A stretch of DNA of 25,516 bases from a virus. Lineage: Duplodnaviria; Heunggongvirae; Uroviricota; Caudoviricetes. The DNA lies in IMG/VR virus record IMGVR_UViG_2671180439_000001. One strand, 5' to 3'. Under the pieces are notes generated by a model. It saw only the letters and a program-made list of their open reading frames with translations. It was not told the origin of the DNA and ran no database searches. The first letter of the stretch is position 1; each line of letters starts with the position of its first letter. Shown in pieces: positions 3,046-8,735 of this stretch. Position numbers and translations under genes: made by a program.

Positions 3046-3834
3046 ATGAGCGAGAAATTAAAGATAGTCTATCGCCCATTACAAGAATTGTCACCGTATG
3101 CGCACAACGCCAGGACGCACAGTACTGAGCAGGTGGCACAACTGGTAGAAAGTATTAAGCAATTCGGCTGGACTAATCCGGTGCTGATTGACGAAAAGGG
3201 CGAAATTATTGCGGGTCACGGTCGTGTTATGGCGGCTGAAATGCTCAAAATGGATTCTGTTCCGGTCATTGTTCTGTCTGGCCTGACGGATGATCAGAAA
3301 AAGGCGTACCGCCTGGCAGATAATCGCCTACCGATGAATGCTGGCTGGGATGAAGATCTGTTGCGGATGGAGCTGTCGGACCTAATCAATGCTGATTTTG
3401 ATGTCTCCCTGACAGGCTTCGGCCCGACAGAAATTGATGAACTGTTGACGGATGTTTTGCCCGGTACAGGAAATAAGGAGGAGCCGTATACGACGAAAAT
3501 TGATACGCCTGTTTATGAGCCGTCGGGCGGTAAACCGGATATCAGTGAACTGTACGACGATACGAAAACTCAGGAGCTGATCAGCCGGATACGTTCGGCG
3601 TCCCTTGATCCTGATATTGAGAAATTCCTCCTGTGTGCGGCAGAACGTCACACGGTGTTTAATTTCAGCAGAATTGCGGACTATTACGCTCATGCCCCCG
3701 CTGAAATTCAGTGCCTTTTCGAGGAGTCGGCGCTGGTGATCATTGATTATCAGCAGGCTATTGAAAATGGATTTGTCCGAATGACGCAGCGCATGGTGGC
3801 GATCATGCATAGCGGGGAGGAGGAATATGCGTGA
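3046..3834 (+). CDS. ParB-like nuclease domain protein (ParB/sulfiredoxin N-terminal fold)
   Basis: 262-aa ORF. N-terminal region KLKIVYRPLQELSPYAHNARTHS...IIAGHGRVMAA...VPVIVLSGLTDDQKKAYRLADNRL resembles the ParB N-terminal domain; the C-terminal half is acidic with no recognised domain. Confidence 0.7.
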   Translation: MSEKLKIVYRPLQELSPYAHNARTHSTEQVAQLVESIKQFGWTNPVLIDEKGEIIAGHGRVMAAEMLKMDSVPVIVLSGLTDDQKKAYRLADNRLPMNAGWDEDLLRMELSDLINADFDVSLTGFGPTEIDELLTDVLPGTGNKEEPYTTKIDTPVYEPSGGKPDISELYDDTKTQELISRIRSASLDPDIEKFLLCAAERHTVFNFSRIADYYAHAPAEIQCLFEESALVIIDYQQAIENGFVRMTQRMVAIMHSGEEEYA

Positions 3835-4759
3835 TGATTTTTGCGCCTTTATTCTGACTCACGGGCGACCGGACAAAGTTCTGACTTACCGGACGTTGCG
3901 TCGTGCTGGCTATACCGGGAAAATTTTTATCGTTGTTGATGATGAAGATAAGACACGGCATCAGTACATGGCTGAATTTGGTGAACAGGTGCTGGTATTT
4001 TCCAAAGCAGATATTGCCAGTCGTTTTGACGAAGCCGATAATTTTGGTGACCGCCGCTCAATTTTTTACGCCCGTAATGCCTGTTTCGACCTGGCAAAAC
4101 TGGTCGGGTGTAAATACTTCATTCAGCTCGATGATGATTATCACGAGTTCCAGTTTCGGGTGGATCGCAACTATGACCAGGCCTATTTCCCGATAAGGAA
4201 ACTGGATGCGATCCTTTCTGAAATGCTGGCGTATTACGAATCAATACCCGCGCTTTCCATCGCTATGTCGCAGGGCGGGGATTTTCTTGGTGACAATGGC
4301 GGCCATGCTTCGTGGGTGAAACGCAAGGCAATGAACAGCTTTATCTGTTCGGTTGATCGACCGTTCTCATTCATGGGGCGCATTAACGAGGATGTGAATA
4401 CGTACACGAATCTCGGTCGCCGTGGTGAATTGTTTATGACGATCGGTGCTGTCCAGTTAGGGCAGAAACAGACGCAGAAAAACAGCGGCGGAATGACCGA
4501 GCTGTATCTGGATTCCGGGACCTACGTTAAAAGTTTTTATTCCGTCATGTATGCGCCGTCGTGCGTAAAAATCTCACTGATGGGCGCCAGCCATAAACGC
4601 ATTCACCATCAGGTCACCTGGAACAACGCTGCAGTAAAAATCCTTCACGAAAAATACAGGAAGAAGACACCCTGCATATTAATGGGGGTGACAAATGATT
4701 CCGTATTCGAAAGTCGAGTCTCTGGCAGCGTGCCGGATGACTGCACAACAAATCGCTGA
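3827..4759 (+). CDS. Hypothetical protein with GT-A-like glycosyltransferase signature (two acidic motifs), possible nucleotide-sugar transferase; function unknown
   Basis: 310-aa ORF overlapping the ParB-like stop by 8 nt, GGAGGAGGA Shine-Dalgarno just upstream. Motifs KIFIVVDDEDKT (3932-3949 region) and YFIQLDDDY (LDDD at 4127-4138) resemble the Asp-rich and DxD motifs of GT-A fold (GT2-like) enzymes. No transmembrane segments seen. Confidence reflects the functional guess; the gene itself is well supported. Confidence 0.5.
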   Translation: MRDDFCAFILTHGRPDKVLTYRTLRRAGYTGKIFIVVDDEDKTRHQYMAEFGEQVLVFSKADIASRFDEADNFGDRRSIFYARNACFDLAKLVGCKYFIQLDDDYHEFQFRVDRNYDQAYFPIRKLDAILSEMLAYYESIPALSIAMSQGGDFLGDNGGHASWVKRKAMNSFICSVDRPFSFMGRINEDVNTYTNLGRRGELFMTIGAVQLGQKQTQKNSGGMTELYLDSGTYVKSFYSVMYAPSCVKISLMGASHKRIHHQVTWNNAAVKILHEKYRKKTPCILMGVTNDSVFESRVSGSVPDDCTTNR

Positions 4760-4946
4760 CGTTCTGGATGTTGATCTGAACCGACTGAAAGAAAATCGGG
4801 AAGCAATGACAAATTTTTACGCGTCCATCCGTAAGGGCAGAGCGAAAGGTGAAGCCGAGCTACGGGCGGCATTGTTTAAGCTTGCCAGAAAAGGGGATGC
4901 CTTTGCCCTACGCGAACTACTCAGGGTGGATAAAAATCAGGACTAA
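4695..4946 (+). CDS. Hypothetical small protein, possible helix-turn-helix DNA-binding protein preceding the terminase genes
   Basis: 83-aa ORF ending 4 nt before TerS. Segment MTAQQIADVLDVDLNRLKEN looks HTH-like. Its 5' end overlaps the preceding gene by 65 nt, so the real start may be the internal ATG at 4737. Confidence 0.35.
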   Translation: MIPYSKVESLAACRMTAQQIADVLDVDLNRLKENREAMTNFYASIRKGRAKGEAELRAALFKLARKGDAFALRELLRVDKNQD

Positions 4947-4949
4947 CTG

Positions 4950-6044
4950 ATGAGCAGACCGGACTGGGGGGCGTTGCAGCAGGAGTATATTGCTGAATAC
5001 ACCCGCTCCGGTATATCTCCGGTGGCATGGTGTGAAGCAAGGGGACTGAATTACGCAACAGCCCGTCGTTACATCAAAAAACCTCCGAAAAATGCGCAGA
5101 CAGAAATGCGCAAAACTGCGCAAAAAAGTGCGCAGAAAAAATCTGCGCAGACTGCACAAAAGCGGAACGGAAAATCTCAGGAAAAAAAGCCAGTATCCGA
5201 TGCGTACCTGAATGAGGGCGATGCGGAAGAAATTTCGTTCTGTCCCGATGAATTCGGCGTTTCTGACCAGCAGGCGAAATTCGCAATGCTGGTTGCCCAG
5301 GGGAAAAAACTCGTTGAGGCATATCGCCTGGCAGGATACGAGTCAGAGGGGAATGCGGCCTACGTAACCGCCAGCCAGCTCCTAAGAAATCCTAAGGTTT
5401 TTCGTGCTATCAGCTACTTCCGCAATCAGTACCAGAAACGCTATACCGCAGACCTGGATTTACTGGTGAGTCAGTTGATGGCCATTGTCCAGGCCGACCC
5501 CAATCAGTTGGCACAATTTCGCCGTGTTAACTGCCGTTATTGCTGGGGCGAGAATCATCACTACCAGTGGCGCGATATAGCAGAATTCGATAAGGCAGCG
5601 GCGCAGGCCTCCAGAGATGGCAAACCCGAGCCGGAATATGGTGGCCTTGGCTTTGTTGATAACGCCATACCCAATCCGGACTGCCCGAAGTGCTGCGGTG
5701 AGGGAACGGGGCAGCTTTATATGGCTGATACCACTCTGCTTGATGGGGAAGCGCGGCAATTATATGCAGGGGCAAAGCTCGGAAAATTTGGTGTTGAGAT
5801 CCTGCTGGAGGATAAGGCTGCCGCCCGGCGTGAATTGTTGCGTTTGCTTGCTGCTGGTGGGGCTTTATGTGCAGATAAGCGGCTACAGGAACTGGAAATT
5901 GAACGGCGCAGAATGGAAAACCAGAAGCTGCGCAAAGAGATCGAAACGGTGGAAGATAATGAACATCCCCAACCTGTGGCGATCAATATTAATGTGGTTG
6001 ATGCCAGAGTAAGGAGTGATGAAGATGATCTCTCCGACGCTTAA
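4950..6044 (+). CDS. Terminase small subunit (Terminase_2/P27-like core) with N-terminal HTH and Cys-rich zinc-ribbon-like segment
   Basis: 364-aa ORF directly upstream of and overlapping the large terminase. Region SDQQAKFAMLVAQGKKLVEAYRLAGYESEGNAAYVTASQLLRNPKVFRAI fits the small-terminase pattern; N-terminal HTH-like segment (SPVAWCEARGLNYATARRYI); low-complexity K/A/Q linker; CRYC...CPKCC motif; C-terminal coiled coil. Confidence 0.75.
   Translation: MSRPDWGALQQEYIAEYTRSGISPVAWCEARGLNYATARRYIKKPPKNAQTEMRKTAQKSAQKKSAQTAQKRNGKSQEKKPVSDAYLNEGDAEEISFCPDEFGVSDQQAKFAMLVAQGKKLVEAYRLAGYESEGNAAYVTASQLLRNPKVFRAISYFRNQYQKRYTADLDLLVSQLMAIVQADPNQLAQFRRVNCRYCWGENHHYQWRDIAEFDKAAAQASRDGKPEPEYGGLGFVDNAIPNPDCPKCCGEGTGQLYMADTTLLDGEARQLYAGAKLGKFGVEILLEDKAAARRELLRLLAAGGALCADKRLQELEIERRRMENQKLRKEIETVEDNEHPQPVAININVVDARVRSDEDDLSDA
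5093..5149 (+). repeat. Array of five TGCGCA(G/A)A palindromic-core repeats inside the 5' part of the TerS gene (candidate pac/TerS recognition site)
   Basis: TGCGCA occurs at 5093, 5107, 5117, 5129 and 5144, spaced 10-15 bp, each followed by G/A then A. Confidence 0.5.
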
Positions 6045-7326
6045 TGTGCCTCAGGCGCGATTTCTTTCAATGCCCCACAAATTTAAAGCCTATGTCGCTG
6101 GTTTTGGCTCGGGTAAAACATGGATTGGGTGTGGTGGCATATGCAAGGGGATTTGGGAACATCCTGGTATAAATCAGGGATATTTTGCGCCAACGTATCC
6201 CCAAATTCGCGATATTTTTTACCCTACAGTGGAAGAAGTTGCTGCTGACTGGGGATTGAACGTAAAAATTAATGAGGGAAATAAAGAGGTTCACTTTTAT
6301 TACGGACGCCAGTATCGGGGAACCACTATCTGCAGATCGATGGAGAAGCCGCAAACGATCGTCGGTTTCAAAATTGGTAATGCGTTGGTGGATGAACTGG
6401 ACATTTTGCCGAAGGAAAAAGCCAGAACGGCGTGGCGCAAGATAATTGCGCGTATGCGTTATAAGATTGATGGACTTCGCAACGGTATTGACGTTACAAC
6501 CACGCCGGAAGGATTCAAATTTGTCTACGAGCAGTTTGTTAAAGCCGTGCGTGAAAAAACAGAGCTGGCCTCACTGTATGGTCTGGTGCAGGCATCTACT
6601 TTCGATAATGAAAAGAACCTGCCAGCAGATTACATTCCTTCGCTTCTTGAATCATACCCTCCAGAGCTGATTAAAGCCTATCTTCGAGGACAGTTTACTA
6701 ACCTGACAAGTGGTACTGTTTACCATCAGTTTGACCGGAAACTGAATAATTGCGAAGAAGTGGAGCAGCCAGGGGAGCCGATTTATATTGGGATGGATTT
6801 TAACGTTGGAAAGATGGCGGGAATCGTCCATGTGCTGCGTTTGGGGCTTCCATGTGCGGTAACTGAAATCATCAATGCCTACGATACGCCGGATATGATC
6901 CGCATCATTAAAGAACGCTTCTGGCTGTATGACGGGAATGATTACCGGAAAGTGAGGGAGATTTATATTTATCCAGATGCTTCCGGAGATTCCAGAAAAT
7001 CAAGTAACGCAAGTACGACGGATTTAGCCCAGCTTAAGCAGGCTGGTTTTAACGTTGTGGTGAACAGCTCGAACCCGCCAGTAAAAGATCGCGTTAACTC
7101 AATGAATGCAATGTTCTGCAATGCCAATGGCGAACGTCGCTATAAAGTTAATGTGAAGCGTTGTCCGGTATATGCCGAATCTCTGGAGCAACAGGTCTGG
7201 GATGATAAGGGGGAGCCTGATAAAAAATCAGGCAACGATCACCCGAATGATGCCGGAGGCTATTTCATCGTTAAGCAATTCCCTATTATCAAACCGACCG
7301 GAAGAGTCACATCACTTCGGATTTAA
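6025..7326 (+). CDS. Terminase large subunit (PBSX/Terminase_3-like ATPase-nuclease)
   Basis: Walker-A-like GFGSGKT near the N-terminus, acidic DELD (Walker-B-like), C-terminal nuclease-like region (IYIGMDFNVG). Start placed at ATG 6025, which has an AAGGAG Shine-Dalgarno 8 nt upstream; the ORF track starts at GTG 6016. Confidence 0.85.
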   Translation: MISPTLNVPQARFLSMPHKFKAYVAGFGSGKTWIGCGGICKGIWEHPGINQGYFAPTYPQIRDIFYPTVEEVAADWGLNVKINEGNKEVHFYYGRQYRGTTICRSMEKPQTIVGFKIGNALVDELDILPKEKARTAWRKIIARMRYKIDGLRNGIDVTTTPEGFKFVYEQFVKAVREKTELASLYGLVQASTFDNEKNLPADYIPSLLESYPPELIKAYLRGQFTNLTSGTVYHQFDRKLNNCEEVEQPGEPIYIGMDFNVGKMAGIVHVLRLGLPCAVTEIINAYDTPDMIRIIKERFWLYDGNDYRKVREIYIYPDASGDSRKSSNASTTDLAQLKQAGFNVVVNSSNPPVKDRVNSMNAMFCNANGERRYKVNVKRCPVYAESLEQQVWDDKGEPDKKSGNDHPNDAGGYFIVKQFPIIKPTGRVTSLRI

Positions 7327-7328
7327 TT

Positions 7329-8735
7329 ATGGCTGATATATCAACACCCAACCTCGACTATAACGATATGCTGGAGGCGTGGGATATTAACGACGCACTG
7401 ATGGGCGGTACGCTTGAAATGCGCAGGCAGGGGGAAAATTATCTCCCAAAATGGCCTAACGAAGATGAAGACGCTTATAAAAAACGCCTGTCTGTGGCTA
7501 CGCTACTTCCTGTGTATGAAGAAAGCATTAAGCAAAATATTGGACGCATATTTGCAGAGCCGACAGTATTGAGTGAGGAAACGCCGGAAAAAATCAGGGA
7601 ATATGCAGAAAATATCGACATGGAGGGGAGCCGACTGGATGTGTGGGCGCAGCAATTTTTCAGCCTCGCATTTCAGTATGGTGTGGCACATGCGCTGGTG
7701 GACTATCCACGAACGGATATGAAGGAGATCCGGACAAAAGCCGATGAAAATGCGGCTGGTGGTCGCCCATACGTTACGATGCTGAATCCACGCCAGGTTA
7801 TTGGATGGAAATCGAAAGTTGAAAAAGGGAAAGTTGTTCTTACTGATTTGCGTATAAAAGAGGTCATCATTGTTGATGGTGATGATTTCGGGCAGAAGAA
7901 GGTGGAGCAGATCCGCCATATTATGCCCCGTTGCGTTGAAATTTATCGACGCAGCGAAGGTACTAATGGCGAATCTGTCTGGACGCTTCACGAGTCATGG
8001 AATACCAGCCGTGATGATATTCCTCTGGTAACACTGTATACGAAGAAAACAGGGTTTATGCGTGGTACACCGCCATTGCTTAATCTTGGCTTGCTGAATA
8101 TCAAGCACTGGCAAAGCCAGAGCGAGCAGGACAATATTCTTCATGTTGCCCGCGTCCCATTGCTGGTGGCCTACGGGCTGGACAGGAATGAAGAACTGAC
8201 GGTTGGTGCATCCACCGCTACGATTTTTGAGGACAGAACAAAAAATGGCCTCGAATATGTTGAACATAGTGGGGCAGCGATAGAATCTGGCGAAACATCA
8301 CTGGAGAAGCTGGAAAATCAAATGCGTCATGCCGGCGCTAAACTTCTGCGGGCTGAAAATACATCCACCAAATCTGTTGATCAGACTAATGAAGAGCGGA
8401 TGCAGGAAAACTCGCCGCTTTATACAATGGCGAACTCCCTCGAAGATGCCCTCGATAATATTCTCCAGATAATGGCGGAATGGATCGGAGAGAGTTGCGG
8501 CGGCAATGTGGATGTGCGCACTGAACTGGATGTATCTGCCCAGGTGTTTGACTCATCCTCCGCGCTGGCTGTTCAGTCATTGCGTCAGGGCGGTGATATA
8601 CGTCAGATTGATGCGGTTCGGGTGTTGCAGGCGTTGAAATTTATCGATCAGGATTCCCGTCCAGAGGAAGTGATCGATGAATTAAACAATCAGAGTGTAA
8701 TGCTGATGGAAATCAATGATGCAAACCGTGAATGA
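7329..8735 (+). CDS. Portal protein (putative)
   Basis: 468-aa ORF immediately after the large terminase (2-nt gap) and before the head morphogenesis gene. Call rests on size and conserved gene order, not on a recognised motif. Confidence 0.7.
   Translation: MADISTPNLDYNDMLEAWDINDALMGGTLEMRRQGENYLPKWPNEDEDAYKKRLSVATLLPVYEESIKQNIGRIFAEPTVLSEETPEKIREYAENIDMEGSRLDVWAQQFFSLAFQYGVAHALVDYPRTDMKEIRTKADENAAGGRPYVTMLNPRQVIGWKSKVEKGKVVLTDLRIKEVIIVDGDDFGQKKVEQIRHIMPRCVEIYRRSEGTNGESVWTLHESWNTSRDDIPLVTLYTKKTGFMRGTPPLLNLGLLNIKHWQSQSEQDNILHVARVPLLVAYGLDRNEELTVGASTATIFEDRTKNGLEYVEHSGAAIESGETSLEKLENQMRHAGAKLLRAENTSTKSVDQTNEERMQENSPLYTMANSLEDALDNILQIMAEWIGESCGGNVDVRTELDVSAQVFDSSSALAVQSLRQGGDIRQIDAVRVLQALKFIDQDSRPEEVIDELNNQSVMLMEINDANRE

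Follow-up and report, generated by a model that had tools for sequence, protein, structure and literature searches.

A TGCGCA hexamer array within a phage small terminase gene is a probable pac site recognised by a PacA-like N-terminal domain

The viral DNA IMGVR_UViG_2671180439_000001 (Caudoviricetes; 25,516 nt, the whole of which is referred to here as the window) carries adjacent genes for the small (TerS) and large (TerL) subunits of a terminase. TerS matches the Pfam family Terminase_2 (PF03592) over residues 123-321 (E 1.7e-9; 38.9 bits with a cut-off of 26.1), and matches phrog_51, 'terminase small subunit', over its full length (E 1e-74). Ahead of the Terminase_2 core, the protein has an N-terminal domain of about 44 residues followed by a low-complexity linker, and the DNA encoding this linker contains an array of the self-complementary hexamer TGCGCA. 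Here, we describe this array and its counterparts in related phages, and argue that it is probably (at a rough estimate of 0.7) a pac recognition site bound by a PacA-like helix-turn-helix (HTH) in TerS, in an arrangement that resembles that of phage P1 but is set on a Terminase_2 core.

The five start positions of TGCGCA reported in a preliminary description of the window, and its placement of the array in the 5' third of the TerS gene, proved exact (Table 1): the five perfect copies occupy nt 144-200 of the 1095-nt gene. The count of five holds for perfect copies; the array itself has six units, the last being a decayed TGCACA, and with this unit it covers nt 144-209. Successive units are separated by 14, 10, 12 and 15 bp and then by 9 bp to the sixth unit, so that the spacing of one helical turn that had been proposed is correct as an approximation only; helical phasing of the hexamers is ruled out by the spacing modes of 7, 9, 12, 14 and 16 bp across the 85 related loci described below. 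Copies 1, 3, 4 and 5 share the frame xxT-GCG-CAr (x-Ala-Gln).

TGCGCA is not enriched in the window as a whole (13 occurrences, 11.8 being expected from shuffled sequences). By contrast, 5 of the 13 occurrences lie inside 57 bp, which corresponds to approximately 88 per kb versus 0.31 per kb elsewhere, and the local enrichment that had been put forward as a check on the array is therefore strong. No hexamer forms a denser cluster anywhere in the window, and the group is the only cluster of TGCGCA, the next copy being at 5929. Five copies of any hexamer within 57 bp were never reached in 300 dinucleotide-preserving shuffles, and when 13 sites were placed at random 200,000 times, five of them never fell within that distance. 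We conclude that the cluster is real and non-random.

Table 1. Positions of the terminase region features and of the hexamer units in the window
Feature	Position	Strand	Remarks
TerS gene, 364 aa	4950..6044	+	Open reading frame; Pfam Terminase_2; phrog_51
N-terminal PacA-like domain, aa 1-44	4950..5081	+	Predicted three-helix helix-turn-helix
Arg39 codon	5064..5066	+	In helix 3; candidate specificity residue
Low-complexity Lys/Ala/Gln linker, aa 45-100	5082..5249	+	Joins the N-terminal HTH to the TerS core
TGCGCA copy 1	5093..5098	.	Frame aaT-GCG-CAg (Asn-Ala-Gln)
TGCGCA copy 2	5107..5112	.	Frame aTG-CGC-Aaa (Met-Arg-Lys), one frame off
TGCGCA copy 3	5117..5122	.	Frame acT-GCG-CAa
TGCGCA copy 4	5129..5134	.	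Frame agT-GCG-CAg
TGCGCA copy 5	5144..5149	.	Frame tcT-GCG-CAg
Decayed sixth unit, TGCACA	5153..5158	.	One mismatch; perfect TGCGCA in many close relatives
Terminase_2 core	5316..5912	+	Canonical DNA-binding helices from ~5256 (about aa 103)
TerL gene	6016..7326	+	Overlaps the TerS end; Pfam Terminase_6N and Terminase_6C
Portal-type gene	7329..8735		DUF4055

The N-terminal domain is common to TerS proteins whose cores are only ~40% identical or of another type, and it has the pattern M-x-x-P-D-W-G ... W-C-E-A-x-G-L-N-Y-x-T-A-R-R-Y-I-K. In Klebsiella prophages, E. coli phage PHB10 and Yersinia phages, the domain is in every case followed immediately by a hexamer array; in the Klebsiella prophages, the six TGCGCA copies span all three reading frames, in which they encode T-A-Q, P-A-Q, L-R-T and K-C-A-E. 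A scan of one genome per species with an alignment of the domain identified 80 loci in Enterobacterales and one Vibrio, and these were combined with the window and four phage loci into a set of 85 loci from hosts in Enterobacterales, Vibrio and Aeromonas. Throughout this set, a hexamer array follows the domain; the density of TGCGCA is 24.6 per kb in gene nt 100-300 versus 0.73 per kb in the flanks, and 77 of 280 hexamers (27%) lie outside the main frame.

For 67 intact loci from different species, we compared the codons of the Ala-Gln dipeptides in the linker with those in the rest of the same genes. In the linker dipeptides, Ala is encoded by GCG in 235 of 255 cases (92%) versus 408 of 1464 (28%) in the rest of the genes. 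Similarly, the third base of the codon preceding Ala-Gln is T in 241 of 255 cases versus 25% elsewhere. The hexamer ends before the third base of the Gln codon, and this base is free (CAA, 139; CAG, 116). Because synonymous positions inside the hexamer are fixed while the next one is free, we conclude that selection acts on the six base pairs of DNA and not on the peptide. Relatives thus keep the DNA repeat while reading frame, spacers and linker peptide change, which bears out the suggestion of DNA-level selection in the preliminary description and is the opposite of a protein linker retained with its DNA repeat lost. The composition of the linker follows from the hexamers and the A-runs, and the peptide tracks the DNA motif: it is Ala-Gln-rich with TGCGCA, Ala-Asn-rich with TGCGAAT and Asp-His-rich with GATCAT.

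The domain was met only at the N terminus of small terminases. Together with the array, it is found on at least three TerS cores, i.e. Terminase_2 with a CxxC...CxxC insertion (as in the window), a short Terminase_2, and the 933W-type phrog_370, which has no Pfam match; the adjoining TerL proteins are of the Terminase_6N, Terminase_3 and 933W types. The array is always coupled to the N-terminal domain across these different TerS cores and TerL types, and domain and array therefore behave as a mobile cassette.

The last helix of the domain and the hexamer change together. Every intact locus in which this helix reads (T/S)ARR(Y/H)(I/V)K bears a TGCGCA array. The 73 loci with Arg39, which include a few disrupted genes, have on average 4.9 TGCGCA and 0.04 TGCGAA/TTCGCA, whereas the 12 loci with Lys39 ((T/S)AKRYIK) all follow the other pattern, with on average 0.08 TGCGCA and 5.5 TGCGAA/TTCGCA (Arg39/Lys39 split 69/4 versus 0/12; Fisher P = 1.4e-11, uncorrected for phylogeny). 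The Lys39 units are in most cases part of a longer TGCGAAT, and many form the palindrome TGCGAATTCGCA. A further Lys-type locus, that of Klebsiella phage RothD, fits; judged by eye, so do two phages with an Arg-type helix, Aeromonas phiARM81mr with seven TGCGCA and Vibrio phage douglas 12A4 with five, the latter split 2 + 3, as arrays are in some relatives. In a neighbour-joining tree of the domain with residue 39 masked, Lys-type domains are scattered among Arg-type domains, and one Lys-type domain (L112) has a single other difference in 42 residues from an Arg-type domain (L099). Regardless of how many independent switches these loci represent, all copies of an array have changed together with the helix.

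The Shiga toxin (Stx)-converting phages of the 933W and VT2-Sakai type have a more diverged domain with the helix NTARTRIK, followed by four (A/C)(T/C)(C/T)GATCAT units with a period of 12 bp. In two of these phages (PV189402 and VT2-Sakai, AP000422), the GATCAT units lie at TerS nt 130-180, encode I-D-H-E repeats and contain Dam sites, as in P1; moreover, one or two TGCGCA are present ~100 bp past these units (nt 230-270). We found no published pac site for Stx phages in the literature.

The analogy to phage P1 that had been proposed on the basis of repeated hexamers alone turned out to be closer, as the window domain resembles the N terminus of P1 PacA and the P1 hexamers likewise begin in the 5' part of pacA just past that domain. 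In BLASTP, the two domains align with 34% identity over 35 residues, with 'LN..TARRY' in common (E 0.001). TerS residues 6-79 match phrog_1711, the PacA family to which PacA itself belongs (4e-202), with E 1.4e-4, and reciprocally PacA residues 3-104 match the 933W-type TerS family phrog_370 with E 1.9e-4. In the annotated P1 record, pacA nt 194-233 contain four TGATCA, spaced by 7, 12 and 15 bp, and nt 324-380 contain four TGATCA/G; the hexamers occupy two frames. The mapped cleavage, which has a site for integration host factor (IHF) beside it, is at nt 276-285. The P1 pac site is experimentally established, and changing the hexamers synonymously reduces P1 packaging ~9-fold (PMC10028697; for pac and PacA, Sternberg and Coulby 1987 and Skorupski et al. 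1994, as cited there).

For the N-terminal domain, a single-sequence AlphaFold2 model predicts helices at residues 6-20, 24-31 and 35-41, with a predicted local distance difference test score of 86-89 in the core; Arg39 and Arg40 fall in the third helix. No Pfam family matches the domain. The top Foldseek matches to the model, none of them significant, are all HTH DNA-binding domains, among them DeoR, IstA, Aca1, Fis and TrpR. The Terminase_2 core keeps its own N-terminal helices, and TerS would therefore have two DNA-binding modules.

Altogether, these observations suggest the following mechanism. TerS would consist of a PacA-like HTH (residues 1-44) and a flexible linker of ~55 residues ahead of an ordinary Terminase_2 core. 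In the TerS oligomer, several tethered domains would each bind one TGCGCA within the DNA that encodes the linker, with Arg39 in the recognition helix reading the G:C pair at hexamer position 5. This multivalent binding would mark the phage DNA, the TerS core and TerL would assemble at the array, and TerL would make the first cut nearby, at which a packaging series would begin. That the hexamers are under DNA-level selection for binding by the N-terminal domain of TerS we consider very probable, more so than the mechanism as a whole; the function as pac we grade somewhat below the latter. Packaging by the headful mechanism is assumed here on the basis of the TerS family and of relatives such as F116 and the Jersey-like phages; these relatives of the TerS core and of TerL we take to be headful packagers. 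TerL itself had been described as short and PBSX-like, consistent with headful packaging. We rejected this argument: the match to TIGR01547 (PBSX) scores 30 bits, far below the cut-off of 105, so that TerL is remotely PBSX-like and says little about headful packaging.

Among close relatives, we compared 83 IMG/VR loci representing 20 distinct versions of the array. These arrays comprise four to seven units, with four to six perfect copies among them, and differ by the gain or loss of whole units. The base 5' of copy 2 varies between A and G in the DNA of relatives, and a C at this position is inferred from protein variants (Met/Val/Leu, in which Leu would require C); the hexamer is retained in each case. 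Many TerS versions in the databases (including P0021, P0026, P0028, P0035, P0039 and P0040, mostly from Logan read-set assemblies) are frameshifted in the A-runs between the hexamers and later return to frame; these frameshifts are probably homopolymer assembly errors, the alternative being real slippage in the A6-A7 runs, which could also occur. In the annotated deletion fusion of the Rac-SA53 TerS (KU052037; 2912-3060), the N-terminal HTH is lost and the joint falls where the array begins; of the five hexamer units that remain, three carry mutations (TTCGCA, TGCGCT and TGCCCA), an anecdotal sign of decay without the domain. Two further versions, P0050 and P0063 (565 aa), are glycosyltransferase-TerS fusions joined within the HTH. 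The array region may be a joint for deletion or recombination.

Several points weigh against the array being a P1-like pac site read by this domain. In the close relatives, copy 2 is broken to TGTGCA in ~29 of 83 loci and copy 4 is TGCGCG in ~19 of 83, and therefore no single copy is essential. Moreover, in our tally of the 20 versions from close E. coli relatives, hexamer columns were not significantly less variable than spacers; this column test is uninformative among close relatives because of low divergence and frequent recombination, and informative with one locus per species. Codon 39 lies only ~15-30 nt from the first hexamer, and linkage together with recombination could therefore have spread a single historical switch, in which case the Fisher P value overstates independence. 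Residue 39 is also not the sole determinant of the motif, as P1 PacA has 'TARRY' with TGATCA and the Stx phages have Arg39 with GATCAT. The HTH fold is weakly supported by the single-sequence model, for which Foldseek returned no significant match (best E 0.65), and the similarity to PacA (E about 1e-3 to 1e-4) weakly suggests homology. With regard to P1, the window has one cluster of five to six copies, whereas P1 has two clusters that flank the cut; no IHF consensus was found between 4123 and 6114 with one mismatch allowed, whereas P1 has an IHF site by the cut; and TGCGCA contains no GATC. Finally, a literature search, which included the terminases and pac sites of Rac, Rac-SA53 and 933W, found no DNA-end, binding or packaging experiments for any member with a TGCGCA array. 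Database records were also considered as a source of physical ends. Four Stx-phage records that end 787 nt into TerS were rejected as such, since this position is the start codon of TerL and the records are simply re-linearised; the paper on these records gives no termini. The array is not where the records of induced prophages, ON4705xx-ON4706xx, begin.

The comparative evidence demonstrates coupling between domain and motif, not packaging as such, and the TerS HTH could instead bind the array as an operator or roadblock that controls terminase expression, or serve other regulation. As the array is inside the coding region of its own gene, a bound protein could impede transcription. However, the domain is restricted to small terminases across three TerS cores, the comparable arrangement in P1 is an experimentally proven pac site, and no promoter-like sequence was found near the array; we consider such a regulatory role unlikely. 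Binding by another protein, with a purely positional link to TerS, would fit the observation that a ParB-like protein is encoded two genes upstream (3046..3834) and that ParB-type proteins bind clustered palindromic sites; a host factor might also be envisaged. Klebsiella, Yersinia, Aeromonas, Vibrio and Stx phages, however, have domain and array with unrelated upstream genes and no ParB, and it is with a residue of the TerS domain that the motif changes, which leaves little room for this explanation.

Alternatively, the hexamers could act in RNA, pairing into hairpins through which the translation of the terminase mRNA or its stability is controlled, or which serve as terminators of antisense transcripts. 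The predicted RNA fold of 5080-5170 is far more stable than those of shuffled sequences (z = -5.3), the minus strand at the array scores as several terminator-like hairpins, and other arrays also give low values (Klebsiella L085, z -3.6; L112, -3.9; L174, -2.4). A strong fold is expected here because TGCGCA is self-complementary. This stability is not conserved (non-palindromic arrays of Yersinia, TGCGAAT, z -0.55, and of Stx phages, -0.74; phage vB_Apl-pPE4, -1.4; P1, -1.9), direct TGCGAA repeats cannot pair mutually, and spacing and copy number vary freely; moreover, an RNA structure does not account for a hexamer that changes with an adjacent protein residue. We therefore regard a function in RNA as highly improbable. 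It could also be argued that the array is a by-product of slippage, i.e. a (K)(S/T)AQ peptide repeat in a low-complexity linker with no function at the DNA level, as copy number shifts by whole units (four to seven) among close relatives. This explanation is contradicted by the codon analysis, with its fixed synonymous sites within the hexamer and a free site next to it. In addition, 27% of copies fall outside the main frame, where they specify other residues, there is no homogenisation between spacers and hexamers, and one and the same hexamer is retained in genera whose TerS cores share only ~40% identity. It appears barely tenable. The reading that we favour remains a pac site bound by the TerS N-terminal domain.

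The Terminase_2 match of TerS aligns to model positions 20-129, implying an insertion of ~90 residues. At 5532-5693, this part of the gene encodes a CxxC...CxxC pattern (CRYC at residue 195, CPKC-C at residue 245), a possible zinc ribbon that would be unusual for phage small terminases. In a Morganella morganii locus (L169, 1501-2217), a 933W-like TerS core has the same C-terminal tail as that encoded at 5973-6041 of the window (PVAININVIDARVR...) and is followed by the same type of TerL, which suggests that the tail is a TerL-docking element exchanged together with TerL. In phage vB_Apl-pPE4 (PP818812; 2707-2915), a TerS core 78% identical to that of the window has an unrelated N-terminal domain (Pfam HTH_50, E 2e-6), and where the window has its hexamers this gene contains two GTTTCCAC and then GTGGAAA, GTGGAAAC and GGAAAC in inverted orientation. 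Here, a second cassette of HTH and array may be present; as only one other such locus is present in IMG/VR, we do not generalise from it.

Sequences 96% identical to the window include Salmonella phage SPF_0923 and a set of induced E. coli phages, and of 5426 complete E. coli genomes, 675 (about 12%) contain the 161-bp region of the array. Relatives of TerL include Jersey-like and K1-ind-like siphophages. An open reading frame of 491 residues at 1433-2908 corresponds to a gene annotated as TrkG potassium uptake protein in the 96%-identical record ON032529. Since trkG is a Rac prophage gene in E. coli K-12, we place the window in a Rac-like lambdoid prophage. Directly upstream of the terminase genes (3046-4759) are two overlapping genes. 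The first encodes a protein of 262 residues with a ParB_N domain, which matches phrog_620 and the N-terminal part of a phage DNA methyltransferase family, and its partner encodes a TET-associated glycosyltransferase (TAGT, PF20691; phrog_842, 'beta-glucosyl-HMC-alpha-glucosyltransferase'). Together they may form a module for DNA modification; a TET/JBP gene was not seen. Just before TerS, an open reading frame of 83 residues (4695-4946) matches only positions 145-218 of the 319-residue small-terminase family phrog_309 (E 2.5e-22), and some assemblies (P0011 and P0012, 435 aa) have an in-frame fusion of it with TerS. It may be what is left of a TerS that was displaced, or else a small accessory protein of packaging.

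In a broader sense, the HTH and the array in the DNA of its own linker may constitute a portable cassette for pac specificity that is swapped among unrelated TerS cores and TerL motors and reprogrammed by single changes in helix 3; we see about equal grounds for and against this extension. The exchange would involve phages whose hosts are Enterobacterales, Vibrio and Aeromonas, the Shiga-toxin phages and ~12% of complete E. coli genomes among them. A code in which Arg39 specifies TGCGCA, Lys39 TGCGAA and an ARTR helix GATCAT is similarly finely balanced. If true, pac phages would have a simple, readable recognition code, which would offer a means to redirect packaging and transduction. How TerS of pac phages reads its site has been called 'a key question still unanswered' in a review (PMC9611059), and in vitro these proteins bind DNA weakly and independently of sequence (PMC9611059; PMC4737164). 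The TGCGCA family provides a tractable case, with a short, repeated and sharply defined motif and natural variants in which a single helix residue and a single base are exchanged. Moreover, it is common, being present in E. coli genomes and Klebsiella prophages and, in a GATC-containing version, in Stx-converting phages. Knowledge of the pac site is relevant to predicting how neighbouring host genes are moved by generalised and lateral transduction, and to the engineering of packaging-specific phagemids, as done with P1 pac (PMC10028697).

Among known systems, the pac sites of SPP1 and SF6 (pacL, pacC and pacR), which are recognised by G1P proteins that are type members of Terminase_2, share with the window the family of the TerS core and a pac region that overlaps the start of the TerS gene; moreover, their pac DNA has A-runs interspersed with G+C-rich elements, as in the window (PMC4737164). 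In SF6 and SPP1, the only DNA-binding domain, at the N terminus, has a weak, sequence-independent affinity for pac DNA, and the box repeats are irrelevant (PMC4737164), whereas TerS of the window has an additional N-terminal HTH that appears to confer base-specific recognition of a short repeat. P22 and Sf6 are also enterobacterial temperate phages with a recognition site inside the TerS coding sequence (PMC9611059); in P22 this is a single asymmetric 22-bp site, to which TerS binding could not be shown in vitro (PMC9611059). Unlike the window, these phages have an unrelated TerS family and no repeat array. In phage lambda, several short repeats, the R-sites of cosB, are bound by the N-terminal winged HTH of the small terminase subunit gpNu1, which is a likeness to the arrangement proposed here. 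Lambda is, however, a cos phage and not a pac phage, its R-sites are 16-bp elements that are located outside the gene, upstream of Nu1, and organised by IHF, and the protein family is different.

The closest counterpart is P1. In both, repeated palindromic hexamers lie in the 5' part of a small-terminase-type gene directly 3' of the sequence coding for an N-terminal 'LN..TARRY' domain, a putative HTH in the window; they are unevenly spaced (7, 12 and 15 bp in P1, with values of the same order in the window) and occur in more than one frame. The P1 hexamer is TGATCA/G, whereas TGCGCA contains no Dam site, and control by methylation is therefore presumably absent. The remainder of the window TerS, a Terminase_2 core with a zinc-ribbon-like insertion, is not PacA, and its Terminase_6N/6C TerL is unrelated to PacB. 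In total, the arrangement is best read as a P1-type pac with another hexamer, in one cluster and without GATC or IHF sites, that would have been grafted onto a different terminase.

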